Below, piece by piece: positions 1,381 to 39,196 of a DNA stretch of 64,000 nucleotides. The position numbers were made by a program, and so were the translations under genes. Location of the stretch: assembly GCA_023397475.1 (NCBI GenBank), contig JAEWUD010000047.1, positions 3,543 to 67,542 on the forward strand, in the 5' to 3' direction. The notes below the pieces were generated by a model, which saw nothing but the letters and a program-made list of their open reading frames with translations, had not been told where the DNA came from and ran no database searches. This DNA comes from Bacillota bacterium. Its GTDB lineage: Bacteria > Bacillota > Clostridia > Saccharofermentanales > Saccharofermentanaceae. Within the stretch, counting starts at the first letter, position 1; every line of letters begins with the position of its first letter.

Positions 1381-1680
1381 GTACCGACGAAAACGTCGTC
1401 AGCGACCCGTTTCGTCGGTGCATCAGCGAGTTTCAACACGCGCCGGAGAGGCGGCGCACCGACGAAATCGACATCAGCGGCCCGTTTCGTCGGTGCATCA
1501 ACGAGTTTCAACACGCGCCGGAGGGGAGATGCACCGACGAAAACGTCATCAGCGACCCGTTTCGTCGGTGCATCAGCGAATTTCAACACGCGTCGGGAAG
1601 CTGACGAACCTACTCAACCGCGCTCAACGGACGTTTTAGTAGGTTCGTGCATGAAAAGCCCCGCGTAAAGGGTCGGCGAA
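1381..1680. repeat. Tandem 75-bp hairpin repeat array A (4 units)
   Basis: Units start at 1381, 1456, 1531 and 1606. Each is GCACCGACGAAA + 16-nt loop + GTTTCGTCGGTGC + 34-nt spacer. The fourth unit carries a CCTACTCAA/TTTAGTAGG hairpin instead. Confidence 0.9.
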
Positions 1681-1720
1681 ACCTCATTGGCTAGCGACAA
1701 ATATCGAATGGAGGTTAAAC

Positions 1721-2224
1721 ATGAAGGTCAATGAGTCGGCTACAACCTACTACGATAGTTATGAGACTTTGTACGAGAACGAAGTTGAGGCCTTCTTGAC
1801 GGCGGCAGAATCGGGGGACGAAGAGACACTAATTAAGTTTTTCACGGCATCGCGAAGAGAGGATCCGGAACTTCGCCGGCAAATCTCGGAGCTTATTGCG
1901 GAGTTCCCGGGGCCGGTTGATTCAAGAGAGGAAGCGTTTTTCCCGTCGAAGTCCAGTAATTGGGACGAAGGTTTCGAAAACATGAAATGTGACAGTACCT
2001 TCTATTTTGTTTCGCGCGGTGTGCATTATTATGTAGACCTAACTTGTACGATTGTAAGAGATCGGAATTACGAGGAGGCCGGCATCACGTACGTTGCACT
2101 GTGGTCAGCGGAGGCATTCAGCGAGAAAGATCGCGATCATCCGGAACACGACGGGGTTTATGCGTTCCTTGAGACTGAGGAAGCGAATCAAAGAACATAT
2201 TGTACGTATCCGTCCGGGACGTGA
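1721..2224 (+). CDS. Hypothetical protein (possibly DUF5104-like)
   Basis: 167-aa ORF with RBS GGAGG 7 nt upstream of the ATG. There is no signal peptide. The family assignment is only a weak recollection. Confidence 0.55.
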   Translation: MKVNESATTYYDSYETLYENEVEAFLTAAESGDEETLIKFFTASRREDPELRRQISELIAEFPGPVDSREEAFFPSKSSNWDEGFENMKCDSTFYFVSRGVHYYVDLTCTIVRDRNYEEAGITYVALWSAEAFSEKDRDHPEHDGVYAFLETEEANQRTYCTYPSGT

Positions 2225-2394
2225 GAATGTTGAGTAAGCGGGATTTCGCCTCGAATCGGGGCGCTGAGACTAACAACGGCTTTATACATAAATTCTCATT
2301 CTTTATACTACAAGGTGAATCAGAGTTGGAATTTAGAGATTATATAAAGACTGACTATCTGCAAGAGAGATCTTCCGAGACTAATTTATTTCAA

Positions 2395-2430
2395 ATAAAA
2401 AACGCCAAACGTTTTGCGCTCGGCGTTCTT
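2395..2430. terminator. Bidirectional intrinsic terminator between convergent genes
   Basis: Hairpin AACGCC(2401-2406)...GGCGTT(2422-2427). An A-run lies on the plus-strand side (a T-run for the minus-strand lipoprotein gene) and CTTTTCG lies on the other side. Confidence 0.55.
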
Positions 2431-2458
2431 TTCGTGCATTATAGGTGATCATTCTCAC

Positions 2459-3199
2459 TCAGCACCAGTAAACCTGTTTGACCTCGGTCACGACGTCATC
2501 CTCGACGGTTACCCAGTAGAAGAGGCCTTTCATGACGTAGGAGATGCCGTCCGGATCGACCTTTTCGAGCTCATAGAGCGCGACAAAGTCCTCGTAGGAG
2601 ATTGATTCGGAATCCGGCCAAGTTGCTGTCTGGGAACCGTCGGCGTAATGGATGGCCTCGAGTGGGGTTACAACCAGATCGACGGTGCGCAGTTGCGGGT
2701 TGATATTCTTCATGAAGAACTCGCCGTCCATGTAGTTGTTGACCTCTTCTTCGGCCTCGGCCGGCGTATAGCCTTCGTTGTTGACGAGCCAGTCGATCGC
2801 GTCCTGGCCGGTCAGCATGTCGAAATAATCGAACTTCGCCAGGCCTGTCTCGGGATCAAATGACTTCATTATCGCGTAGCTCGAATACATCGTCGCCGTA
2901 TTCACGACGGGAGGGCGGGTGGTCTCGGAAGGTTCGGTGGGGGTCGGGGCGGCTGTGGTCGCCGCGACTGTTGTCTCGACGGCAATAGTTGCGTCTGCAG
3001 TGGTGGACTCTGCCGTTGTCGGTTCCTCCGTAGTATCCGTGGTCTCTTCCTCGGCGGCCGTTTCTGGCGCTGAGGTCGTGGATTCGTTAGCTACATAATA
3101 GAACTGACAACCAGTCGCGGCGAAAAAAAGTGCAGTACACAGGGAAATTGTTAGGATGATCTTCCGAATGGTCCGGTGATGAAGTACGTTCTTGCTCAT
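2459..3199 (-). CDS. Lipoprotein with a Thr/Ala/Glu-rich linker; hypothetical
   Basis: Start MSKNV at 3199 behind RBS GAGGTGAG. Lipobox-like FFAATGC. Low-complexity TTSAPETAAEEETTDTTEEPTT linker. Confidence 0.7.
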   Translation of the reverse strand: MSKNVLHHRTIRKIILTISLCTALFFAATGCQFYYVANESTTSAPETAAEEETTDTTEEPTTAESTTADATIAVETTVAATTAAPTPTEPSETTRPPVVNTATMYSSYAIMKSFDPETGLAKFDYFDMLTGQDAIDWLVNNEGYTPAEAEEEVNNYMDGEFFMKNINPQLRTVDLVVTPLEAIHYADGSQTATWPDSESISYEDFVALYELEKVDPDGISYVMKGLFYWVTVEDDVVTEVKQVYWC

Positions 3200-3454
3200 C
3201 GGCTCACCTCTTCTCAAATTGATGGCACTCATATTATATCATGATTGCTTGAGGGTGGATGAATATCCTGAGATCTTCGAGTTGGAGGCGACATGATTGA
3301 TACGGGTAGAGGTCAAAAATTTGACAGCAAGTTGAATAAAAAAAAAGTCCTTATTATGGGGGAGGTCGCGCCGCGACTCCGATAAAATTGGAGATTCTTT
3401 TCGCAAACTCCCTGAAGCAGTATATATTCATGAGGTCAGTTGGTTATTCGTTGT

Positions 3455-3550
3455 AATCAATGACAAGCAAACGCCTCGAGGTCTACCCAGAACGAGATTG
3501 TCCGGAATTATAGGTACGCGCCGAACCGGCGCGATTTTTTCGACATCAAT
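3455..3550. repeat. Solo, degenerate copy of the array-B repeat unit upstream of gap
   Basis: Contains ATCAATGACAA (3464-) and TAGGTACGCGCCGAACCGGCGCGATTTTTTCGACATCAATAC. Compare the B unit GTAGGTACGCCGGTCGCCCGGCGCGGGTTTCTTATCAATGAC. Confidence 0.5.
3517..3541 (+). terminator. Orphan intrinsic terminator inside the solo repeat unit
   Basis: Perfect 7-bp GC stem CGCGCCG-aac-CGGCGCG followed by ATTTTTT. No plus-strand CDS lies upstream. Confidence 0.5.
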
Positions 3551-3719
3551 ACAGTTCCGCTAGAGTGTTCGCGCGCCATACTCTATGAGGAAATTTCCAT
3601 ACCACCCCACTCCGACGCATATGAAGGCAGGGGATTCGGAACTTGCAAACATTGTGTAAAATGAACAAGGAAAGGGCTCGTTTTCGTGTCAATTTTTTGT
3701 GTCGTTTGAGAATCAAAGG

Positions 3720-3748
3720 TTGTATTAGACGGGTATTTGCGGTAAAAT
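3720..3748 (+). promoter_or_regulatory. Candidate sigma-A promoter of gap
   Basis: TTGTAT - 17 nt - TAAAAT, about 70 nt upstream of the gap ATG. Confidence 0.35.
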
Positions 3749-3783
3749 CTTTGTGGTGCAAAGTGCACACGTAGTAAATCTAA

Positions 3784-4830
<1,047 letters not shown>

Positions 4831-4854
4831 TTTTCCCTCCCGATAACGTATGAG

Positions 4855-4897
4855 ACCCGCTCCGTCGCGCCGCAAGGCTTGACGGGGCGGGTTTTTC
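4855..4897 (+). terminator. Intrinsic terminator of gap
   Basis: ACCCGCTCCGTC ... GACGGGGCGGGT stem followed by TTTTT. Confidence 0.75.
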
Positions 4898-5105
4898 GTT
4901 GTGCGTTCCGACGGGAGGAAGGCCTGAGGGGCGGGTTTTTTATGAGATCAATCCGCGCGAAAAGCATGGCGAGGCGGGTTATCATTGCGCTCCGTCCGAT
5001 TGCAATGCCTGACTGGGCAGGTTTTCTTATGAGATCAATCCGTGCGAGGATGGAGGTTGTCGGGGTTTGACGATGCGCCGTTGGCCGTACAGTTGGAGGT
5101 CGCCG
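4884..5105. repeat. Degenerate 43-44-bp tandem repeat (about 5 units) related to the 3' half of the array-B unit
   Basis: GGGCGGGTTTTT-type motif recurs at 4891, 4935, 4978, 5021 and 5065. Two units share GGTTTT(T/C)TTATGAGATCAATCCG. This resembles CGGGTTTCTTATCAATGAC of array B. Confidence 0.6.
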
Positions 5106-5289
5106 ATTCTGACATAGCACTATCCGTCGTGCCGTTAGACGTCGTTTGGTTGTTGAACTCTGTTTGTTGTGCGGGCAGGTGACGCCATATTTTGTCTTCA
5201 GCGATAAGTGTTTTATGAGATCCTCTCGAGCCGCCGTCTGAGAGCCATCCATTTGATAATGGTCGCAAGCCAACCGGGTTCACAGGGCC

Positions 5290-5737
5290 AACCTACCCCG
5301 GTACGGGTTTCTTATCAATGACAAACCTACTCAAATGGCCAATTCGTGCATTTGAGTAGGTACACCGGTCGCCCGGCGCACGTTTCTTATCAATGACAAA
5401 CCTACTCAATTGGCTGTTTTGCGCGTTTGAGTAGGTACGCCGACCGCCCGGCGCGGGTTTCTTATCAATGACAAACTTACTCAAATGGCCAATTCGTGCA
5501 TTTGGGTAGGTACGCCGGTCGCCCGGCGCGGGTTTCTTGTCAATGACAAACCTACTCAGATGGCCAATTCGTGGGATTGAGTAGGTACGCCGGTCGCCCG
5601 GCGCGGGTTTCTTATCAATGACAAACCTACTAAATAAGCATCGGAGCGTGTTTTAGTAGGTCAGCCTGCCTTGTGGCGTGCGTTTCTTATCATTGACAAA
5701 CCTACTAAATCGGCCTCTTAGCGTGTTTTAGTAGGTT
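5290..5737. repeat. Tandem 75-bp hairpin repeat array B (6 units)
   Basis: TTTCTTATCA motif at 5308, 5383, 5458, 5533, 5608 and 5683 (exact 75-bp period). Each unit is ATCAATGACAAA + CCTACTCAAA-N15-TTTGAGTAGG + CGCCGG-tcgc-CCGGCG + GGGTTTCTT. Confidence 0.92.
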
Positions 5738-6014
5738 GAACTACTAATCACTCATGAGTGACCTCTGTTTCCCAACAAAAAAGACGATACGCAGGTGTTT
5801 CTCTCCATTATCAAAAGGTAGATCTCTCAGCGCGAGCAAGTGGCTATCAAATTCCGCGATGATGGCTCTATCTACGCGCATATGGTTCTACCCTGACGCA
5901 TTTCGCACCGTACTTGTCCTTTCGAAATGAGAGTTTTCGCGGTATAATAAATATGCCCACGTTTGCGTATATGTTGTACGAAGCGCGGGTAATGATTCAA
6001 AGGAGGACTTACTT

Positions 6015-6506
6015 ATGGCACTTTTTGATCCGAAGGCCAGGACGATTTCACTGCTGCAGCGGGCGATCGAGGAGAAGAACGCGAGCATCAACCGTTATTT
6101 TGACGAAATCGGGCGCCTCTATTACGGTCAATACCGCGATGTCTCGGTCGATGTATCCAAAGACATCAACGCAAGATGTGACGCGATTTCTACATTGTTT
6201 ATTGATATCGAGGCGAACAAGCTGAAGATTCTTTTTGAGAAGGGGCTGAAGCTATGCTCCAGCTGTAAGAGGGAGAATCCTCTTGAGCATGCGTTCTGTT
6301 CCGCATGTGGGACGAAGTTCCCGGAAGGGTCGGATAAGCAGGTTGAGGTTCCGACCTCGTTGCCTCCGGTGCCGCCGACTCTTGTTCCCAAGGGCACTCA
6401 GGCTGCGACGGATATTGCCGCGCATGAAGTTCAGGCGGTTCCGGTTCAATCCGAACCGATTCCCGTGAACGGCGAAGCGCCGGCCAATCCACCGCAGAAT
6501 CTCTGA
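6015..6506 (+). CDS. Zinc-ribbon domain-containing protein
   Basis: CSSC...CSAC zinc-ribbon motif and a Pro-rich tail. RBS AAGGAGG. Confidence 0.7.
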   Translation: MALFDPKARTISLLQRAIEEKNASINRYFDEIGRLYYGQYRDVSVDVSKDINARCDAISTLFIDIEANKLKILFEKGLKLCSSCKRENPLEHAFCSACGTKFPEGSDKQVEVPTSLPPVPPTLVPKGTQAATDIAAHEVQAVPVQSEPIPVNGEAPANPPQNL

Positions 6507-6658
6507 CCGAGGAATTGCCCGACGCAACACTTTAATTGTACCATGAATCCGTTTTTTGCGCAGTGATGAACGTTACGGGTTTTTTTCCTCCGTTACGTAT
6601 AATGGAGGTAAGAATCCTGTAAAGGATTCGCGAAAAGAAGCCGGAAGGAAGTGATTCT

Positions 6659-7198
6659 ATGAAGATCACGACACAGGGTATCGGAATTCACGTCGGACAG
6701 AGATTGGAGGAGAAGATCAGCGATAAGCTCTCGAAATTCAATAAGTACTTCGGAGAAGAGGCTGCTTTTTCCGTCAAGATCCGACCGGAACGCGATGTGA
6801 AGAAGGTTGAGATCACGTTAAGACTTCAGAACCATATCTATCGGGCAGAAGCGAAGGACGAAGAGATTCTCACAGCGGTTGACCGCACGGTGGACAAGCT
6901 CGAGTCGCAGATTCGCCGACAGAAGACAAGAATTCAGAAACAGATTCACGACTATTCCTACATGAAGGAGTACCTCGACGACATCGTACCGGATGCGGAA
7001 GATGAAGAGTACGAGGAGAAGACGATCATCAAGCGCAAGACTTTCGCTCTGGTTCCGATGACATCGGACGACGCGGTTTTGCAGATGGAAATGCTCGGAC
7101 ACAGCTTTCTGGTATATCTGGACGCTGAGACCGGAAATGTCTGTGTTGTGTATAAACGCAAGGACGGCAACTATGGTCTGATCGAACCTACCTATTGA
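6659..7198 (+). CDS. hpf: Ribosome hibernation-promoting factor, long form
   Basis: 179 aa. N-terminal sigma-54-modulation/S30EA fold and the C-terminal dimerisation domain ...MEMLGHSFLVYLDAETGNVCVVYKRKDGNYGLIEP. Confidence 0.92.
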   Translation: MKITTQGIGIHVGQRLEEKISDKLSKFNKYFGEEAAFSVKIRPERDVKKVEITLRLQNHIYRAEAKDEEILTAVDRTVDKLESQIRRQKTRIQKQIHDYSYMKEYLDDIVPDAEDEEYEEKTIIKRKTFALVPMTSDDAVLQMEMLGHSFLVYLDAETGNVCVVYKRKDGNYGLIEPTY

Positions 7199-7347
7199 TG
7201 TTTTATCTTTAACCTTTTGAACTTTTGAATGAACCTTTGCTTGATTTCGAATTGCTGAGAAAGGAAGGCTAGGGAGTATATCGATTCCGATACTTGACTG
7301 ATTTCGGTTTTTGATGAATTTCTGTTACTGCCGTTCGATGCGTGATA

Positions 7348-7384
7348 AGAGAGGGTGATCCTACAAAGGGTCACCCTCTTTTTA
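7348..7384 (+). terminator. Intrinsic terminator downstream of hpf
   Basis: AGAGGGTGA-12 nt-TCACCCTCT followed by TTTTT. Confidence 0.7.
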
Positions 7385-7393
7385 TGGTATAAT
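7385..7393 (+). promoter_or_regulatory. Extended -10 element (TGGTATAAT), candidate pcrA promoter
   Basis: TGnTATAAT match directly after the hpf terminator, about 45 nt upstream of the proposed pcrA start. Confidence 0.35.
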
Positions 7394-7438
7394 AAACCGG
7401 CAAAAATCATAAATTACCGATGCTACGGAGGACATATT

Positions 7439-10030: not shown

Positions 10031-10050
10031 GGTGCCCGCCCTGCGTCATA

Positions 10051-10059
10051 TGGTATAAT
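10051..10059 (+). promoter_or_regulatory. Extended -10 element (TGGTATAAT) upstream of dgt
   Basis: TGnTATAAT match 27 nt upstream of ATG 10086. Confidence 0.3.
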
Positions 10060-10085
10060 GACAAGGGCAAAGAGAGGTCTTACTT

Positions 10086-11318: not shown

Positions 11319-11325
11319 GGTTACG

Positions 11326-11967: not shown

Positions 11968-11974
11968 CGGGCGC

Positions 11975-28787: not shown

Positions 28788-28816
28788 TTGACAGACATAG
28801 TAACTCGGAATAGAAT
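28788..28816 (+). promoter_or_regulatory. Candidate sigma-A promoter of the PadR operon
   Basis: TTGACA - 17 nt - TAGAAT, about 50 nt upstream of ATG 28867. Confidence 0.5.
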
Positions 28817-28866
28817 CTACTTTGACAGAGAGAATATCTCGAATCTGTGTTCAGGAGGTACAGCTT

Positions 28867-29202
28867 ATGTCTATTACATCGGATTTACTGCGCGGCCATA
28901 CGGATACCATTATCCTGGCTCATCTGAAAATGAAAGACAGTTACGGATATGAGATCAATAAAGCAATACAGGAGAAGACGGACAATCGCTACGAGTTGAA
29001 GGAAGCCACTTTATATTCGGCTTTCCGCCGGCTGGAGGAAGCGACAATGATCACATCCTATTGGGGGGACGAAACTACGGGAGCCCGTCGAAGATATTAC
29101 TCGATCACGGATCTCGGACGAATGGTGTTGCGCAAGAACAAAGTTGATTGGGAAGAAACCAAGGGAATCATTGACCAGTTATTGAAGGAGGAATCTGTAT
29201 GA
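28867..29202 (+). CDS. PadR family transcriptional regulator
   Basis: LLRGHTDTIILAHLKMKDSYGYEI...LYSAFRRLEE...RRYYSITDLG. RBS AGGAGG. Confidence 0.88.
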   Translation: MSITSDLLRGHTDTIILAHLKMKDSYGYEINKAIQEKTDNRYELKEATLYSAFRRLEEATMITSYWGDETTGARRRYYSITDLGRMVLRKNKVDWEETKGIIDQLLKEESV

Positions 29203-29855: not shown

Positions 29856-29856
29856 T

Positions 29857-30867: not shown

Positions 30868-30915
30868 TTCTCCGTAACGAGTACCGCATACCGCAAAACA
30901 TCACAGGAAAAAGTA

Positions 30916-31019
30916 GAGAACCCAACGCCCGGCTTCGAAACATTCGGAGCTGCCGAAAGTGAAGCCGCAGACTCCCCGCGGTGCACGACGGACAAACGCG
31001 TTGGGCTCTCTTTTTTTTT
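30916..31019 (+). terminator. Long nested-hairpin terminator / structured 3' element
   Basis: GAGAACCCAACGC (30916-30928) pairs 12/13 with GCGTTGGGCTCTC (30998-31010), followed by T9. The 69-nt interior contains GGCTTC..TTCGG-agctg-CCGAA..GAAGCC. Confidence 0.6.
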
Positions 31020-31117
31020 GCCGCTCATGATATAATGCGCTTGAAGATTTGTCATTCGTATCCAGATAAGTTTATTGTTCCGGACAACTAGGGAATTACG
31101 GTAAGGGAGAACGCGGG

Positions 31118-31951
31118 ATGTATATTCCGAAAGAAGCTTTGGGTCTGCGCATAACGAATTTCGCATTCTACCTTGTCATGGTGATTTCGATGTACGCGTT
31201 TGATCGAATCTCCTTGAACGGGGTTACGCTTTTTGATGCGCTTCTTTCTCTGGATACACCACTGACGCCGGACCGTTTCGCATTTTCTGTGTTGCAGGCC
31301 ATATATGTTCTTTTATTCTGTCTGAATCTCTATTCCTTCGGAGCTTTTCACGGAAATTCGAGAGGGGATAACCCAGATCTTATCCATGTCATGGGGCCCT
31401 TTTTCTTCTTCGCAATGGGTGCTGCGGGAGCTTACAGCTTTTCGCTGCATTTCAAGAATCTGTTGGTTTGCATGATCCTGGCGTTTTTCTTGTGGTTTTG
31501 CCTTCAACGGGCCCTCGCAGGCATCCGGGAAGAGGCGAAGCGAACAAGGGAGAAGATCTTTTTTCGAGCCCCGTTAAGCGCGGCATATGCGGTTTCGACG
31601 TCCGTTTTTTTCCTCACGGCAGCTATGCTCTTCCGGGATATGAGACATAATATCCCGGATTTTGGCTACTCCATGTGGATGTACGGGAGCCTGATATTTA
31701 TGATCATCATCGGCGTCTACTATACGACACGGTACAGTGATTATGTCTTCAATCTGGGAATGACATGGATGCTGATCGGAGTTTTTTATAAGAACATCCA
31801 GATTGTCGGAGAAGAGACATCCTTTACGGTTGCCTTACTTGCGTCGGTCGGTATAGGGGTTCTTCTTATTGTAGCGGGCGTTACTTATCTTGCCGGCCGT
31901 AACAAGCCGAAGCTGCCGGAAGGCCCGGGGCATTGGATTCTTTACGACTGA
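31118..31951 (+). CDS. Polytopic integral membrane protein; hypothetical
   Basis: 277 aa with about 7 hydrophobic helices. RBS AAGGGAG. A TGATATAAT extended -10 lies at 31028-31036. Confidence 0.65.
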   Translation: MYIPKEALGLRITNFAFYLVMVISMYAFDRISLNGVTLFDALLSLDTPLTPDRFAFSVLQAIYVLLFCLNLYSFGAFHGNSRGDNPDLIHVMGPFFFFAMGAAGAYSFSLHFKNLLVCMILAFFLWFCLQRALAGIREEAKRTREKIFFRAPLSAAYAVSTSVFFLTAAMLFRDMRHNIPDFGYSMWMYGSLIFMIIIGVYYTTRYSDYVFNLGMTWMLIGVFYKNIQIVGEETSFTVALLASVGIGVLLIVAGVTYLAGRNKPKLPEGPGHWILYD

Positions 31952-33151
31952 TTCCATGCGCTGTTCATGACGTATGATCTTGCGATCCAACGTATGCATA
32001 TATACGTCCTCGACCCGTGCGCCAAACGACTCCGCGGAATAGGATTTGACTCCTTCGTACGCATTCTTCACATAACCGGATGCCAGCGAACGATTGGTAA
32101 GAACGCTCTCGACGAGCTCGGGAATTTGAACCGGGTCATCAAAGAGTCGACCGTCAATCTTGTCGCGAATAATCCGACGAATACAATCATCGTTGCGCGC
32201 GATGATCGGGAGTTCTGCGGCCATCGCCTCATAATATGTCAGTCCCTGCGTCTCTGTCGTTGAACAACACAAGAACAGGTCTCCCAGACGATAGTACTTG
32301 CCGATCTCCAGATAGGGAACCGCTCCGATAAAAATAACATGTTTCTTAACGCCGATCTCTTCAGCCAGAGACGCTAAAGAGTCCAGCGCCGGCCCTTTGC
32401 CGACGATAACCATACGCGCCAGGGGAATTCGTCGCAGGATCTCCGGCATCTGGCGAATCGCCTGGTCGAGACTCTTCTCCTTTGCGACTCGTCCGAGACA
32501 GAGGATAATCGGCCAGGATGGATCTATACCGTGCTTCTTCTTGATTGCGAGGACATCCTTGTCTGCGTACCCGTTCTTGCGAAAGGGATCGAGATCAATT
32601 CCCGTCGGGATGACATAGATCGGCTTGGTAACACCGCAATCCAGCAAATATTGCTTCGTCTTATCCGTAGGCGCGATAACAGTTGACGCAAGATTACTGA
32701 AGAACTTGCTGTACGTGTGCGCCATCTGTGGCGTCGCGATCTTTCCGTTGCCGATATAATGGATATAGTCCGCCCACATCGTATGATAGGTATGAACGAT
32801 CGGTATGCGAAAAGATGTCGCGGCGTAGAGTGCCATGAATCCCATAAAAAACTCAGATTGCGTGTGAATAAGGTCGATCTTGAACTTCTTGATCAATCGG
32901 ATCAGACGCATCGAACGGAACGAGAAAAGCGATGCGGCACGGTACGGCTTAAGAAAAATGATCGGAACGCTGGTGAAGCGATAGACAAATTGATCTTCCG
33001 GTGCCTTCTTCTTAACGGATCTTGATTCAGTAACCGTAAAAACATATACCTTATGACCGCGCTTGCGTAATTCCTGCGACAAGGTGTGGACGGAAGCGGC
33101 CACGCCGTTGATGTCAGGGAAGTAGGTATCCGTAAATATCGCGATATTCAT
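31835..33151 (-). CDS. Glycosyltransferase family 4 (glycolipid/diacylglycerol glycosyltransferase-like)
   Basis: MNIAIFTDTYFPDINGVA N-terminus and the GT4 C-terminal E-x7-E region (TETQGLTYYEAMA). The C-terminal ~50-aa tail overlaps the convergent gene. Confidence 0.85.
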   Translation of the reverse strand: MNIAIFTDTYFPDINGVAASVHTLSQELRKRGHKVYVFTVTESRSVKKKAPEDQFVYRFTSVPIIFLKPYRAASLFSFRSMRLIRLIKKFKIDLIHTQSEFFMGFMALYAATSFRIPIVHTYHTMWADYIHYIGNGKIATPQMAHTYSKFFSNLASTVIAPTDKTKQYLLDCGVTKPIYVIPTGIDLDPFRKNGYADKDVLAIKKKHGIDPSWPIILCLGRVAKEKSLDQAIRQMPEILRRIPLARMVIVGKGPALDSLASLAEEIGVKKHVIFIGAVPYLEIGKYYRLGDLFLCCSTTETQGLTYYEAMAAELPIIARNDDCIRRIIRDKIDGRLFDDPVQIPELVESVLTNRSLASGYVKNAYEGVKSYSAESFGARVEDVYMHTLDRKIIRHEQRMESVVKNPMPRAFRQLRLVTAGKISNARYNKKNPYTDRRK

Positions 33152-33220
33152 GCAAATCTCCGTTTCGTCGGCTCTCCGATCAGTATAATACCAGAAAACC
33201 ATAAAAGAATGACAGAATTG

Positions 33221-33868
33221 TTAGGGTTCATCCCCGATTCCGGCTGCGCGTTTTAAATAAAAGATCGCAAGTTGCGTCCGCGACTTCAGGGATAACTTAT
33301 CCAGAAGAATACTGATTGCGTTACGGACTGTGCCCTCGCTGCTGTAAAGCTTTTCCGCGATCTCTTTATTACTTAAACCCTCAGAGACCAGTTCGATGAT
33401 CGAGAGTTCCTTCGGCGTTAAGAGGTAGGAGGAGAGATCCGGCGCATCCGGAGATACCGGTCGATTCAGTAGGGAGAATCGCGCTGCAATATCTCCTCCG
33501 AAAACACTCTGCCCGGCAAAAACCGCACGAAGCGAAGGCACGATACTGTCGAAATCCTGCTTCAGGAGGTATCCGCGAGCGCCCATCCGCAAAGCTTTCA
33601 CAATATAATCATCATCGGAGAACGTAGTAAGAAAGAAAACCCTGGCATCGGGAAACATCGCGAGAAGCGACTCCCCCGCGGCAAGTCCGCTTGTCTTCTT
33701 CATGCGAATATCCATGAGGAGAATATCCGGCCGATGTGCGTTGTATAAAGGAATAGCATCTGATCCGTCCGACCCGGTCGCGGGAACCGATATGTCGCCC
33801 GACGCTTCGAGAATCGTCTTGAGCGCCTGTGAGACAAGTGGATCATCATCGATAATTACAATCTTCAT
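33221..33868 (-). CDS. Response regulator, NarL/LuxR family
   Basis: Receiver domain (IIDDDP...LLMDIRM) plus LuxR HTH (LTPKELSIIELVSEGLSNKEIAEKLYSSEGTVRN). Confidence 0.9.
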   Translation of the reverse strand: MKIVIIDDDPLVSQALKTILEASGDISVPATGSDGSDAIPLYNAHRPDILLMDIRMKKTSGLAAGESLLAMFPDARVFFLTTFSDDDYIVKALRMGARGYLLKQDFDSIVPSLRAVFAGQSVFGGDIAARFSLLNRPVSPDAPDLSSYLLTPKELSIIELVSEGLSNKEIAEKLYSSEGTVRNAISILLDKLSLKSRTQLAIFYLKRAAGIGDEP

Positions 33869-34941
33869 TCTTCCTCCTTGGGTACGGCGACGAATACCTC
33901 GAATCCGTTCTGTTCGCGAAAAACCACATTGCCGTGAAGACTCTCAATACGTGTTCGAATGTTCCGCAGACCCATGCCTTCTGTTTCCGCAACGGAAGAC
34001 TCTTTCCGGAGGCTTCCGTTATCGCGCACGACCAGCTGGTACAATGCGGGATGCTCTATGATCATTACGGTCACTTGAGTGGCATTCGAATGACGGGCGA
34101 TATTTGCGAGAGACTCCTTAAGAACGGAGAGGAACGCATAACGAATCTTAACGGACGGAGTAGAATCAACCGCGTATTTGAAGGTCAACGGACAGAATGC
34201 GAACCGGTCCGTCAGCGCCTTCGTCTCATCGAAAAGGCTGAAGGATTCATCTCGCAGATTATGAATGCTCGATCGGACTTCGTCCATTCCGTCGGACAGT
34301 GTGTCGCGAAGGAGGGTCAACCCCGCCTTCGTACTCTCCTCTTTGCTGGTAGCCAGAAGCGCACCGGTTTGAAGAAGAGACCCGGTCAGAACATGTCCAA
34401 TATTATCATGAAGTTCTACGGCAATCCTGTTTCTCTCCTTAAGAGTTGCTAAATGAATCTCATAATCCTGTTTCTCGAGAAGTTCGCGATTGGACTTCTC
34501 AAGAAGATACTGCTTCTCGGTAACCTCGTCGCGCAGGCGATGATATTCCGACTTCATCCTCTCCGCATCTCTCGTCCGGATTCGAAGAATGATCGAGAGG
34601 AGCACCAGAAGCGCGATAATAACGGCCGGCATGATGGTGATCTGTGAAGCGGAGAGGGCAATCGGAAACAGACATAGGAGATTAACGTACAGGAAGCGTC
34701 CGTTTGACACATCGTAGGAAAAGATCGGGAGGAAGAAGACAAGCGGAGGAAAGAAGATCGATCCGATCATGCAAAGACCCAAGCCGCAGAGGTAACCCTT
34801 GTCATTATCCCAGAGCGTCAATACAGCCGTACCGAGCAATGAAGCTATCACGAAAAGTACCGCGAAAGGTTCGGCGGTATTTACAAGAAAAAACGTAAGG
34901 CAGAAAACGAAAAGAATAGCCTTATCCAGCAATGCAGTCAT
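33865..34941 (-). CDS. Sensor histidine kinase, HisKA_3 type with a multi-TM sensor
   Basis: H-box RNRIAVELHDNIGHVLT and an HATPase_c C-terminus. Overlaps the regulator gene by 4 nt. Confidence 0.88.
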   Translation of the reverse strand: MTALLDKAILFVFCLTFFLVNTAEPFAVLFVIASLLGTAVLTLWDNDKGYLCGLGLCMIGSIFFPPLVFFLPIFSYDVSNGRFLYVNLLCLFPIALSASQITIMPAVIIALLVLLSIILRIRTRDAERMKSEYHRLRDEVTEKQYLLEKSNRELLEKQDYEIHLATLKERNRIAVELHDNIGHVLTGSLLQTGALLATSKEESTKAGLTLLRDTLSDGMDEVRSSIHNLRDESFSLFDETKALTDRFAFCPLTFKYAVDSTPSVKIRYAFLSVLKESLANIARHSNATQVTVMIIEHPALYQLVVRDNGSLRKESSVAETEGMGLRNIRTRIESLHGNVVFREQNGFEVFVAVPKEEE

Positions 34942-35011
34942 GTAAAGGCTCCATTTCTTGAGAAGTACGAATCCTTTCTTATTCTATCATGTTCGTAAGA
35001 TTCGCGTTTGA

Positions 35012-35061
35012 TGACATTTGTCACAGGAGAATGAGGAGGTTTGTCACTTATGCGGACAAAC
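35012..35061. promoter_or_regulatory. Two inverted repeats sharing TTTGTCAC in the divergent TCS/ABC intergenic region; candidate regulator binding sites
   Basis: TGACA-tt-TGTCA (35012-35023) and GTTTGTC-9 nt-GACAAAC (35039-35061). The TTTGTCAC copies are 22 bp apart. Confidence 0.3.
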
Positions 35062-35121
35062 AGGGAACAGTACAATGGAGACACAATAAAACAGATGCGG
35101 GTGGTAACCCGGGAGGGAAAT

Positions 35122-36060
35122 ATGGTTGTTAAGGTTTCAAAGCTAGTGAAGCGATACGGCGATCTCATCGCATTAGACCATCTGGAGCTTGAGGTACGCG
35201 AGGGCGAGGTCTTCGGCCTTCTGGGTCCGAATGGTTCGGGCAAGACAACGGTGATCAACTGCATCCTTTCTCTCTTGTCTTTTGACAAGGGTGAGATCGA
35301 AGTGTTCGGAAAGTCGATGAAGCCGTCGTCCTATGATCTGAAAAGAGACATCGGCATCGTCATGCAGAATGTCGCGGTGATCAACGAATTGACCGTTTAT
35401 GAGAATATCGATTATTTCTGCGGTATGTATATTTCGGATAAGGCAACGCGCAAGAAACTTGTCGAAGAGGCTATCGAATTCGTAGGCTTGGGTGATTTTC
35501 GCAAGTTCTATCCCAAGAAACTCTCCGGCGGTCTGTTACGCCGCCTCAACATTGCTTGCGGCATTGCTCACAAGCCGAAACTGATCATTATGGATGAGCC
35601 GACGGTTGCGGTCGATCCGCAGAGCAGAAACAGTATCCTCGAGGGTATCGAGAAACTGAACGCCCAGGGCGCGACAGTTATCTACACTTCGCATTATATG
35701 GAAGAGGTCGAGCAGATCTGCACACGAATCGGAATTATGGACAAGGGGCGGATTATCGCTTCAGGAACAAAGGAAGACCTGAAGAGCATGATTCGCGTAG
35801 GTGAGAAGATCAGCGTCGAATGCCTAGCCGGAGATACCGATTCCCTCGTTCAGCATATCAATGAACTCCCACATGTCGCCGACGCTCTAATGAGTGGAAA
35901 TATGCTGCGTGTGACGACGGAGAGAGGGCATAACGGGTTGACGACCATTCTCGAGAAGGTACAGGGACGTGGGATCCATGTCGGTCGCGTCTATTGTGAA
36001 CTTCCGACCTTGAACGATGTCTTCCTCGAGATCACCGGCAAAGAGTTAAGAGATTCCTAA
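35122..36060 (+). CDS. ABC transporter ATP-binding protein (ABC-2 subfamily partner)
   Basis: Walker A GPNGSGKTT, signature LSGGLLRR, Walker B LIIMDEP. ATG behind GGGAGGG. Confidence 0.92.
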   Translation: MVVKVSKLVKRYGDLIALDHLELEVREGEVFGLLGPNGSGKTTVINCILSLLSFDKGEIEVFGKSMKPSSYDLKRDIGIVMQNVAVINELTVYENIDYFCGMYISDKATRKKLVEEAIEFVGLGDFRKFYPKKLSGGLLRRLNIACGIAHKPKLIIMDEPTVAVDPQSRNSILEGIEKLNAQGATVIYTSHYMEEVEQICTRIGIMDKGRIIASGTKEDLKSMIRVGEKISVECLAGDTDSLVQHINELPHVADALMSGNMLRVTTERGHNGLTTILEKVQGRGIHVGRVYCELPTLNDVFLEITGKELRDS

Positions 36061-36072
36061 GGAGGGCGTTAC

Positions 36073-37212
36073 ATGTTCTGGCATGTTTTCTACTACAACA
36101 TCAAAACAACGATCCGGGACAGGGAGCTGATTTTCTGGACGCTTGGCTTCCCGGTAATACTGGCAACATTCTTCGGATTTGCCTTCACCAATATCAGTCA
36201 GTCGGCAGATTTTGATGCGATTCCCATGGGTGTTGTGGAGACGGTCGAATACCAGGAAGACACTCGTTTTCAGGAACTGCTCAAAGATCACAGTTCTGAT
36301 GAAGACCCGATGTTCTCGATCACAAACTATCCGGATGAGGAGAGCGCTAAATCAGCTCTCAAAGATAAGGAAATCCGTGGATACATTGTCGTCGAGGATA
36401 CGATCCAAATGGCCGTGGCAGGCTCGGAAATCGGCGAATCGATCATGAAACAATTTTTCGACTATTACCTACAGATGACGTCCGCATCGGAACGGATTCT
36501 TGCAGACGATCCGATGAACGGACTAAGAATCGGCGATGTTCTCGGTCAGGAGATCACATATCTCAAGGACGAGGAATCGCAGACCAATACTCCCGACAGT
36601 GCTCTCACGTATTACTATGCCTTGATTGCAATGACTTGTCTGTACGCAGCATTCCACGGAATCAAGCAAGTTAGCCTGGTACAAGCCAACCAATCTGCCG
36701 AGGCGGCGCGCATCAGCCTGACTCCGGTGAATAAATTGAAGATTTTCTTCGGATCCATTCTATCCGTGCTTCTGGTTCAGTTCTTTTCGATCACACTGTT
36801 ACTCGCGTACATGCATTTTGTCCAGGGCGTCGATTTTGGCAATAATATTCCGTTCATTCTGTTTGCGGCTGCGGTTGGTTGCTTGTTCGGTGTTTCATTT
36901 GGAGCATTTCTCGGCGTATTGATCAAGGGTGGAGAGGGAATCAAGACAGCTGTGATTATCTCCTTCACGATGACCATGTCCTATTTCGCCGGTCTGATGA
37001 ATGCCGGGGCCAAGCTGGACACAGTGAAGAACCTGCCGTTCATGGCGTACCTGAACCCCGCAACATTGATCGCGGATTCCTTCTACGCACTCTACTACTA
37101 CCACACATATGATCGCTTTTTGCAGAACATCTCGATTCTGCTTGTGATGACGGTCGTATTAATTACCGGATTTACTCTGATCATGAGGAGGCAGCAATAT
37201 GAAAGTCTTTGA
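36073..37212 (+). CDS. ABC-2 type transporter permease
   Basis: An N-terminal TM, a large extracytoplasmic loop, then 5 C-terminal TM helices. RBS AAGGAGG. Confidence 0.8.
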   Translation: MFWHVFYYNIKTTIRDRELIFWTLGFPVILATFFGFAFTNISQSADFDAIPMGVVETVEYQEDTRFQELLKDHSSDEDPMFSITNYPDEESAKSALKDKEIRGYIVVEDTIQMAVAGSEIGESIMKQFFDYYLQMTSASERILADDPMNGLRIGDVLGQEITYLKDEESQTNTPDSALTYYYALIAMTCLYAAFHGIKQVSLVQANQSAEAARISLTPVNKLKIFFGSILSVLLVQFFSITLLLAYMHFVQGVDFGNNIPFILFAAAVGCLFGVSFGAFLGVLIKGGEGIKTAVIISFTMTMSYFAGLMNAGAKLDTVKNLPFMAYLNPATLIADSFYALYYYHTYDRFLQNISILLVMTVVLITGFTLIMRRQQYESL

Positions 37213-38380
37213 TGTCTACGGAAGAATTATTAAGAGAAACCTGCCGGCCTTGTCGATCTACTTCGCGATCTTCTGTGTCTTTGCGGCCCTCCTGTCCATG
37301 AGCGGAAATGATGCAATTACGGGCTATTTCGAGAAACAGAGTCGCGTGATGATTATTAATCACGATTCTTCGAATCCGGTAACCGACGGACTGGTCGAAT
37401 ACCTTTCTTCCAATAGCAAGGTGATCACAGCGGTCGACACGCTCGAGGGCAAAGCAGATTCACTTTTCTATGAGGAGTCCCAGTACATTCTGACCATACC
37501 GGAAGGGTTCGGAGAGAGCCTCATAGCCAATGAAACACCGGATCTCTTGCAGAAACTCACGGTCGACGGATCATCCGCTGACGTGAAAACCAATCTGTTG
37601 ATCGAGAAGTACCTGAACACTTTCCGCCTTTATGTGAAGACCATGGAAATTCTCCCGACAGATACCGCAGCACTGGAAGAGATTCGTACGAACGTCAAAG
37701 AGGATCTGGCAGAACAAGTCTCTGTCGAGTTTCAGGGGGCGGAGCGTAAGGCCGGGATCGAGAAAGCCGGCCAGTTCTTCAAATACATGCCGTATTCGAT
37801 GATTTCGATACTGATTCTCGGAATAACCTCGGTCATGCAGGTCTTCAATCAGAAGGATCTCAAGCGTCGCACAATGTGTGCTCCTGTTTCCCAGCAGAGA
37901 ATCAGCCTCTCGCTGTTTGTCGGTAATCTTTGTTTTGCGGTCGTCGCATGGCTGGCTCTTGTAGTAACCGCCGCATTTCTTACAGGATTTCCGCTCAGCG
38001 ATCCGCGCTTTCTCCTGATGTGCCTGGAAGCTCTAGTCTTCACGATGGCGGCGCTATCACTATCCTTTTTCTGCAGCATCTTCATCAAGACCCCCGCCGC
38101 CCAACACTCTTTTGCCAACGTTATCGCCCTCGGTACCAGCTTTATCAGCGGAGTATTCGTACCCTTGTCAATGCTCGGAGAGAATGTCAAACATGTGGCG
38201 AGCTTCACGCCGACCTACTGGTACGTCAGCGGTATCGAGACAACGGCGGCATTGACCACCTTTGGTTGGGAAGATCTCAAGTACATCGTCCTGGCCATGG
38301 CGATTCAGCTTCTCTTCGCGGCGGTATTTCTGGCGCTGGCTCTGGTACTGACAAGACAAAGAAAAAGGAAAGAAGTGTAA
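37199..38380 (+). CDS. ABC-2 type transporter permease (second subunit)
   Basis: Same topology as the preceding gene. Overlaps it by 14 nt. RBS GAGGAGG. Confidence 0.8.
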   Translation: MKVFDVYGRIIKRNLPALSIYFAIFCVFAALLSMSGNDAITGYFEKQSRVMIINHDSSNPVTDGLVEYLSSNSKVITAVDTLEGKADSLFYEESQYILTIPEGFGESLIANETPDLLQKLTVDGSSADVKTNLLIEKYLNTFRLYVKTMEILPTDTAALEEIRTNVKEDLAEQVSVEFQGAERKAGIEKAGQFFKYMPYSMISILILGITSVMQVFNQKDLKRRTMCAPVSQQRISLSLFVGNLCFAVVAWLALVVTAAFLTGFPLSDPRFLLMCLEALVFTMAALSLSFFCSIFIKTPAAQHSFANVIALGTSFISGVFVPLSMLGENVKHVASFTPTYWYVSGIETTAALTTFGWEDLKYIVLAMAIQLLFAAVFLALALVLTRQRKRKEV

Positions 38381-38404
38381 CGTATTCGACAATAGGAATG
38401 CAAG

Positions 38405-38448
38405 GGGCTGTCTCATGACGAGAGTTGAGAGACAGCCCTTCTTTATAT
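38405..38448 (+). terminator. Intrinsic terminator of the ABC operon
   Basis: GGGCTGTCTC-14 nt-GAGACAGCCC followed by TTCTTTATATT. Confidence 0.7.
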
Positions 38449-38541
38449 TAAAAGGGTTAAGAGGCGAGCATATCTCAGAGCGCTGACGGCAGTACGAGAA
38501 TACAATACTCGGGGAGGCGGGCGCCGCGGGCGTTATGATTT

Positions 38542-39196
38542 GTGGACGAAACCGGTCATTCGAGGCACTTTCGTCCACAAGGGGAGCCCCGCTGGGTGCC
38601 ACTGGCGTTGAGATTTGTGGGCGTACGAAAAAACGGTTTGGAGCATGTTTCGTATATGCATCAATGACAAATAACGGCTCCAGAAAGGCCGCCGCACATA
38701 CGAAATCCTGTGAAGTAGGCAGTTTCGTATGTGCATCAATGACAAAATAACCGTCGCCGGGTCACCGGCGCACATACGAAAAGCTGTGAAGGAGGCAGTT
38801 TCGTATCTGCGTCAATGATAAATTACCGCTCTGGGATTGCTGGCGCACATACGAAATCCCGGGTTGAAGCATGTTTCGTATGTGCATCATTGACAAATAA
38901 CGCCTCTGGGAAACCTAGCGCACATACGAAAACCTGTGAAGGAGGCAGTTTCGTATGTGCATCAATGACAAATATCGGCTCCAGCAAGGCCGCCGCACAT
39001 ACGAAATCCTGTGAAGGAGGCAGTTTCGTATGTGCATCAATGATAAATAACCGCTCTGGGATTGCTGGCGCACATACGAAAACCCGTTAAGATGTCTGTT
39101 TCGTATGTGCATCAATGATAAATAACCGCTCCAGCAAGGACGCCGGACATACGAAAACCCGTGAAAGACCCTGTTTCGTATGTGCCTCATTAATAT
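38542..39196. repeat. Tandem 75-bp hairpin repeat array C (about 9 units)
   Basis: GTTTCGTATGTGC arm at 38647, 38722, 38797, 38873, 38947, 39023, 39098 and 39173. Each unit is GCACATACGAAA + 16-nt loop + GTTTCGTATGTGC + ATCAATGACAAA... 34-nt spacer. The first unit uses GTGGACGAAA/TTTCGTCCAC. Confidence 0.92.

Follow-up and report, generated by a model that had tools for sequence, protein, structure and literature searches.

Repeats of 75 bp form three tandem arrays in a 64-kb stretch of DNA, here called the window. The arrays are probably the tandem internal parts of a lineage-specific, non-coding and non-autonomous modular interspersed repeat of a BOX/BIME/NIME-like kind. The family belongs to an uncultured lineage of Clostridia near Saccharofermentans/Mageeibacillus. 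In the anatomy of the element, end modules surround two to nine modules of 73-75 bp, each consisting of a T-rich run, a quasi-palindromic TCA-W-TGA motif, a stem of 10-12 bp closing a loop of 17 nt, and a GC-rich linker that drifts. The repeat family itself is previously undescribed, and no family in Rfam matches the arrays, in agreement with an earlier note on this DNA which had recognised no described family. The kind of genomic passenger that it represents is already known and is not a new type of system.

Arrays and units in the window

The arrays occupy positions 1381-1646 (A), 5297-5738 (B) and 38540-39185 (C). Tandem Repeats Finder reported 75-bp arrays at 1367-1596 (3.1 copies), 5297-5715 (5.6 copies) and 38647-39189 (7.2 copies). 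A stem scan with the loop length fixed placed hairpin starts at 1381, 1456, 1531 and 1606 in array A, at 5323, 5398, 5473, 5548, 5623 and 5698 in array B, and at 38540, 38619, 38694, 38770, 38845, 38920, 38995, 39070 and 39145 in array C, every hairpin having arms of 10-12 bp and a loop of 17 nt. Motif counts in the window were far above expectation, with 12 occurrences of ACGAAA-N12-20-TTTCGT (0.07 expected), 13 of ATCAATGACAAA at no more than one mismatch (0.37 expected) and five of CTACTNAA...TTNAGTAG (0 expected). The arrays are thus genuine, as had been claimed, and their assignment to one repeat family at three loci is supported. The period of exactly 75 bp described for A and B also stands, but in C the spacings are 79, 75, 76 and then five times 75, and not 74-76; the 16-nt loop and 13-nt arm of the earlier description are in fact a 17-nt loop and 12-nt arms.

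Array A matches the covariance model on the minus strand at 39-56 bits. Its units had been taken as uniform, but three A-type units (stem GCACCGACGAAA/TTTCGTCGGTGC) are accompanied by a fourth, terminal hairpin at 1606-1646 whose stem, CCTACTCAA/TTTAGTAGG, is B-type. An orthologous copy of this array is present in L073. Array B comprises six B-type units on the plus strand (60-71 bits), each laid out as ATCAATGACAAA followed by CCTACT(C)AAA, the loop, TTT(G)AGTAGG, the GC-rich linker and TTTCTT. Array C has nine units, which match on the minus strand at 39-70 bits: unit 1 has the stem TTGTGGACGAAA/TTTCGTCCACAA, unit 2 is degenerate and the remaining seven are C-type, with the stem GCACATACGAAA/TTTCGTATGTGC and then ATCAATGAYAAA. 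The order of modules on the plus strand of B (T-run, TCAWTGA, hairpin, GC-rich linker) is that of A and C on the minus strand, and the claim of one architecture on one strand, correct for A and C, therefore fails for B. A degenerate solo B-type unit was recognised at 3456-3545 on the plus strand by motif match and reading of the sequence, the model match being weak (11 bits). It contains ATCAATGACAAG, a decayed hairpin region, GGTACGCGCCGAACCGGCGCG-ATTTTTT and then ATCAAT; the GGTACGCGCCGAACCGGCGCG-ATTTTTT part has a good intrinsic-terminator shape, with the terminator-like site at 3517-3533. A covariance-model census of the window found no units beyond this one and those of the three arrays.

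Pairing of the stem

Covariation of the stems, which the earlier note proposed to test, was assessed on 125 distinct units. These came from one MAG and some 30 metagenome contigs as well as the window, and were placed in a gapless alignment anchored only on the position of the motif and not on pairing. Overall, 89.5% of stem cells were paired (24-46% in slid controls), and the inner 10 pairs were 97-99% Watson-Crick. Changes on both sides of the stem were seen in 153 cells against 62 in shuffles, four stem pairs switch on both sides, and the covariation score of 0.264 (0.078 in shuffles) was reached by none of 500 shuffles. Because the inner pairs are so nearly complete and the covariation exceeds every shuffle, formation of the hairpin is selected; base-pairing of the unit stem is under selection. 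Compensation of the arm substitutions, first described from three loci, now extends to units from many. Drift of the loop with retention of pairing is likewise confirmed, as stem and motif are conserved across units while loop and linker are variable. The separation of the arms is 17 nt in all 125 units. The units are pseudo-palindromic, and the unpaired motif said to be common to B and C is indeed common to both and has a palindromic core, TCA-W-TGA. The suggestion that each unit is a terminator module did not hold, the GC-rich linker folding no better than shuffled sequence.

A larger composite element

The arrays do not stand alone but form the interior of larger composite elements, whose end modules are conserved. 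C-type arrays are flanked by a leader of about 110 nt and a trailer of about 230 nt whose bounding arms (GGGCTGTCTCAAAAC ... GTTTTGAGACAGCCC) are complementary in an F...F-R pattern. In the window, the left boundary hairpin of array C lies at 38405-38438 (GGGCTGTCTC-N14-GAGACAGCCC), 25 nt past the stop codon of an ABC-2 permease. The trailer lies at 39186-39412 on the plus strand (nhmmer E 1e-72) and ends in a hairpin at 39375-39405 (GGCAGTCTC..GAGACTGC) with a T-rich tail behind it. The left and right boundary hairpins are of the same type (repeat pair 38407-38453 and 39359-39405), and the only two of this type in the 64 kb are those flanking array C. Leader and trailer modules recur in at least seven unrelated contigs, HMMs of both matching non-orthologous contigs; for the trailer these are L074, L019, L082, L053, L047, L079 and L067 (nhmmer E 1e-16 to 1e-75), two of which, L053 and L047, carry an insertion of about 170 nt within it. 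No target-site duplication was recognisable at the C-type ends.

B-type arrays have a different trailer of about 100 nt, at 5743-5845 on the plus strand in the window (nhmmer E 1.8e-24). The same module follows the B-type arrays of L070, L030, L014, L059, L062 and L048 (E 1e-8 to 1e-27), so that it was found in seven loci and, in addition, on array A. There the B-trailer HMM matches the minus strand from 1381 to 1306 (E 2.7e-15), the module containing GACGATACGCA..TGCTCTCCATTGTCGA.AGG..GCGAGCAAG, and BLAST aligns 1307-1364 with 5840-5783 at 77.6%. A 14-nt sequence at 5249-5262 (CCATTTGATAATGG) is 93% complementary to 5805-5818 in the trailer, and CTGAGAG...TTGATAATGG around it matches too. It may be a repeat at the left end of the B element, but the case is weak: because CCATTTGATAATGG is near-palindromic, a direct repeat is an equally good reading of the pair.

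Turnover and genomic context

Elements lie in unrelated contexts and appear to be numerous in each genome, most of the related loci coming from two or three metagenomes and having been recovered through the repeat itself. They are intergenic only, with contexts that differ from locus to locus. The position just downstream of plus-strand genes, which had been reported for all three arrays, is true of the window but is no rule at other loci; orientation to the flanking genes is mixed, which speaks against the element being a cis-regulatory RNA dedicated to them. About 10 contigs terminate inside arrays, as expected of a high-copy repeat. The subfamilies A, B and C and hybrid types with periods of 73-74 bp coexist and recombine, and stem types are mixed within single arrays (the last unit of A; units of L047 and L075).

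Whole units are gained and lost rapidly. The number of units varies between near-identical strains, L002 having one unit more in array B than the window and the orthologue of array C in L064 two fewer. The unit content of array B differs in L052 and L073, this turnover between orthologues being accompanied by local duplications. Sister lineages lack the arrays at the orthologous position: the gap-Zn163 spacer, 1185 bp in the window, is about 150 bp and array-free in L088 and L090 (about 70% protein identity), a comparison between genera in which the spacer is too diverged to place insertion boundaries. No arrays were found in about 100 kb of these two relatives. The repeat was also not found in phages or plasmids.

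Alternative explanations

HUH enzymes such as IS200/IS605 TnpA and the RAYTs recognise DNA by a hairpin and a conserved motif that lies single-stranded at its foot. The units have this design, motif and stem are their conserved parts, and the family is high-copy, intergenic and without a linked gene. They might then be REP/REPIN-type elements that depend on an HUH enzyme, either a domesticated Y1 transposase (RAYT) or some other. The enzyme would read the hairpin in DNA that is single-stranded and cleave at the neighbouring TCAWTGA, and arrays would arise as by-products of repeated replicative events. We regard this as unlikely. The CCTAC...GTAGG of the B-type stems, from which the earlier note took its hint of a RAYT, is peculiar to them, A-type stems having GTCG and C-type stems GTAT in place of GTAG/CTAC (pair table); the units are all direct, without alternating REP pairs; the 17-nt loop is far larger than REP loops; and orientation to the leading strand is mixed in the window, B being opposite to A and C under a constant GC skew. 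No Y1_Tnp domain or RAYT gene, and no transposase or other mobile-element protein, was found among about 50 window ORFs scanned against Pfam, and no protein recurs beside the arrays in about 200 kb of array-bearing contigs. A somewhat smaller likelihood attaches to action as RNA, in which a multi-hairpin ncRNA would be cut to 75-nt units or titrate an RNA-binding protein and, in C-type elements, the RNA would begin in the leader, which would hold the promoter, and terminate at the trailer hairpin. C-type conservation does begin at GGGCTGTCTC after A/T-rich sequence and end at a hairpin with a T-rich tail, the outer arms at the 5' and 3' ends are complementary, and the trailer insertion in L053 and L047 is bracketed by a 13-bp stem with the look of an expansion hairpin. 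Reading of the sequences upstream of the arrays revealed no convincing sigma-70 promoter, however, and RNAalifold gave no covariation support for the trailer (covariation term +3.8). On the plus strand B-type units have 23 G.U against 7 A.C mismatches, but this excess is reversed in C-type units (2 against 7), and since the wobbles of the window all fall on the G-rich leading strand they are explained by mutation bias. The shuffled-level folding of the linker, the mixed orientation to neighbouring genes, and a 17-nt loop with rapid unit turnover, unusual for a functional RNA, also speak against it.

The constancy of arm spacing, the exact period and the palindromic core would suit phased double-stranded sites for a dimeric protein, with two half-sites of 12 bp whose centres are 29 bp apart and TTATCA-A-TGATAA recurring every 75 bp (about seven helical turns), in chromosome organisation or in a centromere-like role (sopC, parC). 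The sopC site of the F plasmid consists of tandem repeats with an inverted repeat in each, which is the design of the arrays. This appears improbable, because variable arm positions are strictly complementary, which a protein not contacting them would not enforce, and a protein contacting them would need a paralogue for each stem type, yet types mix within one array. The arrays are moreover too many and too dispersed for a centromere, and no partition or regulator gene is linked to them. Least credible is that the arrays encode protein repeats of 25 residues (75 bp being 25 codons, and a multiple of three). Array A is open in all three plus-strand frames and a candidate ORF at 1353-1604 has a GGAGAG ribosome-binding site 6 nt 5' of its ATG at 1353, but no ORF spans B or C, the period is 75-79 in C and 73-74 in other subfamilies, the B trailer, which is homologous, has CTG in place of this ATG, and conservation tracks base-pairing and not codon position. 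With no reading frames in B, in C or in the subfamilies of 73/74 bp, this coding hypothesis is effectively refuted.

Comparison with known systems

BOX elements have the structure boxA-boxBn-boxC, with alternative end modules in S. suis (PMC3049150). Like those of S. pneumoniae and S. suis, the elements described here are intergenic composites with conserved, mutually complementary ends around a variable tandem internal module, with alternative end-module sets around related internals (cf. boxE/boxF of S. suis), strain-variable unit number, many dispersed non-coding copies and predicted stem-loops. No sequence relationship is seen or expected. The internal module is 75 bp and not the 45 bp of boxB, is itself a hairpin with a 12-bp stem and 17-nt loop beside a palindromic motif, and has several stem 'alleles' that compensatory changes connect. 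At about 110 and 230 nt the end modules exceed those of BOX, the elements are those of an uncultured lineage of Clostridia, and no candidate for a cognate IS with matching ends was identified.

With the REP/BIME/REPIN and RAYT systems of Enterobacteria and Pseudomonas the family shares high-copy extragenic palindromes clustered in arrays, a hairpin kept by compensatory change, a short conserved motif at its foot and, in B-type stems, CTAC/GTAG. The comparison with REP/BIME made in the earlier note thus holds broadly, for a dispersed intergenic hairpin repeat, but not in arrangement, as the units all point the same way at a fixed period of 75 bp, whereas successive REPs of a BIME alternate in orientation. 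The 17-nt loop, the restriction of GTAG to part of the family, the absence of a RAYT from the sequence examined and the position of the arrays between specific leader and trailer modules are further differences. NIMEs resemble the family as mosaic intergenic arrays in which a short conserved inverted repeat alternates with more variable segments, and in their modular, recombining subfamilies; their sequences and sizes are different and their spacers (RS) are heterogeneous and of 50-150 bp, whereas in this family one repeat takes up all 75 bp of the unit. A Correia element differs in being a single unit, with terminal inverted repeats of 26 bp and with TA duplications. CRISPR arrays and the ToxI of type III toxin-antitoxin systems are also direct, hairpin-capable repeats of regular period (about 36-75 bp) in non-coding DNA. 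Here, by contrast, the 'spacers' (loop and linker) are related by drift and not unique, neither a cas nor a toxN-like gene adjoins the arrays, and each genome appears to have many arrays, in unrelated contexts.

Proposed behaviour of the element

For a modular interspersed repeat of this kind we infer mobility from the distribution of copies, since a cognate IS or transposase was not found. The hairpin and the adjacent motif would be the functional part, acting in single-stranded form, either as DNA during replication or transposition or as RNA on read-through, and would probably be the recognition structure for the agent that spreads or maintains the element. Slippage or unequal recombination may lengthen and shorten the arrays. 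Any effect on nearby genes, such as termination, insulation or transcript stability, would be a by-product, as with BOX, REP/BIME and Correia elements. The constant 17-nt loop and the strong conservation of the motif could nevertheless mean that the repeat has a specific host function, which a purely selfish model would not predict.

Hairpin arrays of the window

Arrays with a 75-bp period were located in the window by Tandem Repeats Finder at 1367-1596, 5297-5715 and 38647-39189. Their unit hairpins were placed by sequence reading and by a stem scan with the loop fixed at 17 nt. Array A holds four (1381, 1456, 1531 and 1606), array B six, spaced at exactly 75 bp from 5323 to 5698, and array C nine, from 38540 to 39145, with spacings of 79, 75, 76 and then five times 75 bp. 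In all three arrays the arms are 10-12 bp long and the loop is a constant 17 nt, not the 16 nt of an earlier note made from the sequence alone. The three hairpin arrays of that note were themselves confirmed by both searches and by counts of three diagnostic patterns, observed 12, 13 and 5 times against 0.07, 0.37 and 0 expected by chance. The uniformity that it saw among the A units extends to the first three, but the last (1606) carries a B-type stem. The model-based search for units that it had suggested was run on the window with a covariance model from 125 units. This gave 18 strong matches, every one within arrays A, B and C and none elsewhere in the 64 kb. A solo, decayed B-type unit lies at 3456-3545. 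The long non-coding gaps of the window (1099-1720, 4831-6014 and 38381-39764) are exactly those that bear the arrays, and the family explains the unusually long intergenic gaps of this genome.

The unit is pseudo-palindromic and consists of a T-run, the motif TCAWTGA (W being A or T) at the foot of the hairpin, an arm, the loop and the second arm; in the hybrid subfamilies found outside the window these are followed by TCAWTGA again and an A-run. The module order of array B on the plus strand is that of A and C on the minus strand, so the common architecture on one strand described previously applies to A and C but not to B, which has the opposite order. The exact 12-mer ATCAATGACAAA is on the plus strand in both B and C. 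Counts of G.U and A.C mismatches point to no one functional strand, as B on the plus strand (23 against 7) and C reversed (2 against 7) give opposite signs. All wobbles in the window fall on the G-rich leading strand, and the conflict is sufficiently explained by leading-strand mutation bias. A codon-usage-filtered gene call placed arrays in co-directional, convergent and divergent gene settings, and a position just downstream of plus-strand genes, which holds in the window, is not a rule at other loci.

Selection on the hairpin

For the analysis of pairing, the location of the TCAWTGA core was the sole guide in extracting units, and pairing itself played no part. Orientation was accepted per whole array, 8-12 of 12 pairs being formed at a fixed offset one way and 1-4 the other way. 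The 125 distinct units obtained align without gaps. Standard pairs occupy 89.5% of the cells of the 12-pair helix, compared with 75% in shuffled and 24-46% in slid controls; the inner ten pairs are 97-99% paired and the outer two are paired in the A and C types only. Cells changed on both sides number 153, against 62 in shuffles, and the covariation score of 0.264 (0.078 in shuffles) was reached by none of 500 shuffles, which bears out the compensated stem changes reported in the earlier note. Its observation that loops drift while pairing is kept also stands, since per-position entropy shows conservation in the motif, in the stem and in a T-rich run, and drift in the loop and the GC-rich linker. 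At four pairs the identity is switched (CG/AU, UA/GC, AU/CG and UA/GC), for the most part between subfamilies, so that few events are represented. The freely varying arm positions change only in a complementary manner, which argues for selection of base-pairing in the stem and against two protein half-sites that are read independently. These data show that selection acts on the single-stranded hairpin together with its adjacent motif, and this is the core of the case.

The arrays as parts of composite elements

The arrays are not free-standing. Leader and trailer modules that flank them are matched by HMMs at non-orthologous loci, and the arrays are thus parts of larger elements. The C-type leader and trailer HMMs match at least seven non-orthologous contigs, on which they enclose 2-9 units. 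The trailer of array C (39186-39412) is 72-78% conserved after C-type arrays on seven non-orthologous contigs (E-values of 1e-16 to 1e-75), and a leader of ~110 nt is also conserved before C-type arrays of such contigs. The leader starts with GGGCTGTCTCAAAAC and the trailer ends with GGGCTGTCTCTCAAC-TTTCG-TTTTGAGACAGCCCC and a T-rich tail. It follows from these sequences that the outer arms, GGGCTGTCTCAAAAC and the terminal GTTTTGAGACAGCCC, are complementary and that the element closes on the right with a terminator-shaped hairpin; at this end the arm is also present in a second, direct copy, which gives a local hairpin (F...F-R). Boundary hairpins of this type occur only twice in the window, and the two (38405-38438 and 39375-39405) flank array C. 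An insertion of ~170 nt within the C trailer at two loci (L053 and L047) and the absence of its first half at another (L079) show that the flanks of C-type elements are modular too. No large ORF is present between the outer arm pairs at any locus, and the C trailer as a structured RNA was rejected after RNAalifold gave no covariation support.

The B-type trailer (~100 nt, 5743-5845) differs from that of C. It is present at seven loci, among them L070, L030, L014, L059, L062 and L048, and also, as the reverse complement, beside array A at 1306-1381. Since the B trailer adjoins array A on the minus strand and the far unit is B-type, array A is a minus-strand B-type element with A-type inner units. 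The B-type left end is represented by a 14-nt near-palindromic match only, with CTGAGAG..TTGATAATGG as the candidate end. Homology of the B trailer to the C leader or trailer was not confirmed by nhmmer, the matches GCAGGTGTT, TGCTCTCC and AACTACNAATCACT being visual only.

Distribution and turnover

Relatives were sought with a stem-agnostic pattern of two ATCAATGAYAAA motifs 72-78 bp apart. The only match to the repeat in the genome collection is L014, a MAG labelled Mageeibacillus, where the array is B-type with a 75-bp period and has other genes around it; at 3948-4047 this array is broken by an N run (masked or unassembled sequence), so that its units cannot be counted. About 30 of 66 metagenome matches are true family members and comprise arrays of the B and C types and hybrid subfamilies with a period of 73-74 bp, in which the motif flanks the hairpin on both sides and lengthens the stem. 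Among the loci recovered, L001, L002, L052 and L073 are orthologues of the A/B region of the window and L064 of the C region; all others have different neighbours. The family is thus dispersed, with three arrays and one solo unit in 64 kb and further members on ~30 metagenome contigs and in one MAG with varied flanking genes. Some ten contigs terminate inside an array, as a high-copy repeat is expected to break assembly. Exact-protein look-ups for further strains returned short contigs only. All-against-all clustering of ORFs at the array loci found no recurrent neighbouring protein or transposase, only spurious ORFs that cross arrays. A phage or plasmid origin was rejected for lack of matches in viral contigs and PLSDB.

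The motif pattern also matches AT-rich metagenome contigs (L022, L025, L033, L036-L038, L044-L046, L051, L057, L058, L065 and L069) with repeats of ~36/73 bp period around the 18-bp palindrome ATGACAAATATTTGTCAT. They have the look of iterons or operator arrays from another, AT-rich organism or plasmid. Unrelated tandem repeats with periods of 45-75 bp adjoin family arrays in L014 (4215-4345, minus strand), L059 (~5100-5300) and L047 (5915-6054), and genomes with family arrays seem to be generally rich in intergenic tandem repeats.

Subfamilies recombine, and their turnover between near-identical strains is fast. L002 has one additional B unit between flanks 99% identical to the window, and L064, 97-99% identical, has two fewer C units. 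The B units of the window, L052 (96%) and L073 (88%) show no positional orthology, and identical duplicates lie side by side. In two relatives with a zinc-ribbon protein ~70% identical (L088 and L090), GAPDH is followed by an array-free spacer of ~150 bp, with a terminator, promoter and ribosome-binding site, and then the same zinc-ribbon gene. The corresponding spacer of the window, which holds array B, is 1185 bp, although L088 and L090 are distant relatives and this comparison defines no exact empty site. Neither arrays nor flank modules were found in ~100 kb of such relatives.

Genomic setting

The window is ordinary chromosome of a Firmicutes/Clostridia organism and encodes GAPDH, the long hibernation factor, PcrA, threonine synthase, RF3, GreA, LysRS, IMPDH and the pst operon. 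A scan of ~50 ORFs against Pfam found no transposase, recombinase or cas gene in the window. The genes downstream of the arrays differ per locus (a weak DUF5104 match, a zinc-ribbon protein and an M24 peptidase), and homologues of the small zinc-ribbon protein beside array B are labelled by source as Eubacteriales, Clostridiales or Saccharofermentans.

Several other features were noted. A 52-bp segment upstream of array A (1204-1255) has 85% identity to 2458-2509, where the minus-strand gene 2459-3232 has its 3' end; the same match is present in L073, and the segment is a gene fragment or small local duplication beside the array. Between the GAPDH stop codon and array B, the 466-bp spacer contains a ~90-bp imperfect direct repeat (4866-5047, 75% identity), kept in L073. 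A 35-bp tandem repeat of ~3 copies (CGCACAAGCGGTGCTCCGCCGGGCTCTGTTACATT, 39552-39672), kept in the orthologue L064, sits between the C element and the near-consensus promoter TTTACA-17-TATAAT (39698-39726) of the M24 peptidase gene (ATG 39765). A perfect 12-bp inverted repeat with a 21-nt spacer, AAAGACGCGAAG...CTTCGCGTCTTT (42166-42210), lies between two TetR-family genes and is possibly an operator or bidirectional terminator, unrelated to the repeat family. A tRNA-Ser(CGA) gene (46982-47070, minus strand) adjoins a perfect 12-bp stem with a 14-nt loop (46939-46976), the whole spanning 46939-47070. A TPP riboswitch (50273-50388; RF00059, 55.7 bits) is directly 5' of the thiamine transporter gene Thia_YuaJ (50434-51264), an ordinary arrangement.

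Comparison with known repeats and alternative readings

The BOX element is organised as boxA-boxB(n)-boxC with complementary ends, a strain-variable number of boxB units and, in S. suis, alternative end modules (PMC3049150). In its anatomy, distribution and dynamics the family matches the class of modular interspersed repeats, with BOX the closest known example: end modules enclose a variable number of internal units, copies are dispersed between genes in unrelated contexts, and unit number varies between strains at the same locus. The likeness claimed is one of architecture, not homology. REP/BIME and NIME are looser parallels. In REP/BIME with RAYT, GTAG/CTAC stands at the foot of every palindrome, the palindromes alternate in orientation and the RAYT gene is typically flanked by REPs. 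Membership of this class fails on two tested features, as GTAG/CTAC is restricted to the B type (A has GTCG and C has GTAT, pairs 13-45 and 14-44) and all units within arrays are direct repeats of fixed period. The CTAC/GTAG that the earlier note pointed out in B stems is real, but A and C lack it and no RAYT (Y1 HUH transposase) is among the ~50 window ORFs scanned against Pfam. The family also fails the classic definition of a MITE: sequences read outside the C-type ends of L074, L019, L053 and L079 have no target-site duplications, and no cognate IS is among the window ORFs.

CRISPR arrays have unique spacers between identical repeats and are accompanied by cas genes or a leader, and type III toxin-antitoxin systems place ToxI-like repeats directly 5' of a gene for a ToxN/AbiQ-type endoribonuclease. 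In contrast, the variable segments of the family are drifted copies of each other, no cas gene is in the window, and the downstream genes share no common neighbour; with no unique spacers and no conserved neighbour gene, both readings were rejected. The 75-bp period might suggest tRNA genes, yet the sole ARAGORN call in the window is the tRNA-Ser at 46982-47070. A known RNA family was likewise rejected, and the claim that no described RNA family is involved upheld, by Rfam, which is empty at gathering and permissive thresholds (best sub-threshold scores 17-23 bits against cut-offs of 60-105). As a coding repeat the unit would give 25 amino acids, and array A is indeed crossed by an ORF of 83 codons (1353-1604), with a GGAGAG ribosome-binding site, that would encode such a repeat. 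Frames are open through A only, and not in B, C or the 73/74-bp subfamilies; the lack of an ORF across B or C, together with periods of 73, 74 and 76-79, shows that the arrays are not coding. This ORF, and likewise a 45-aa ORF call for the B trailer of L001 and L002, are judged to be artefacts, of a kind that automatic gene callers may annotate. One promoter per unit was rejected since no sigma-70-like hexamer pair with proper spacing lies within units. One terminator per unit, which a scan flags in some B units, was rejected as well: linkers (64 of B, 38 of C) fold no more stably than their shuffled versions.

Given the constant loop length and the invariant motif, there is some room for a specific trans-acting enzyme or an RNA-processing system. 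It is conceivable, though improbable, that the hairpin-plus-TCAWTGA module is the substrate of a trans-acting, single-strand-specific system with no linked gene. In one version an HUH-type or other structure-specific DNA enzyme would copy the modules; in another an RNase would process long transcripts of the arrays, much as in CRISPR or ToxI systems, and release 75-nt hairpin RNAs that have a function of their own. Both versions would trace the strict 17-nt loop, the invariant motif and the co-existing compensated stem 'alleles' to specific recognition by a molecule, beyond the stability of the hairpin as such.

Significance

The overall interpretation of the earlier note is supported in part, and we file the family as a newly found composite interspersed hairpin repeat, the kind itself being known. 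In metagenomes its arrays interrupt assembly, spurious ORFs arise from them, and their use as VNTR markers for strain typing would be possible. What is known of interspersed mosaic repeats (REP/BIME, BOX, NIME, Correia) comes mostly from a small number of cultured pathogens. The host here belongs to an uncultured Clostridia lineage. To our knowledge it is still unsettled how mosaic repeats spread and why their hairpins are conserved. With its cleanly compensated stem variants, sharply conserved palindromic foot motif and fast recombination and turnover of subfamilies, the family is a good natural data set for asking which is selected: structure, strand or recognition motif.
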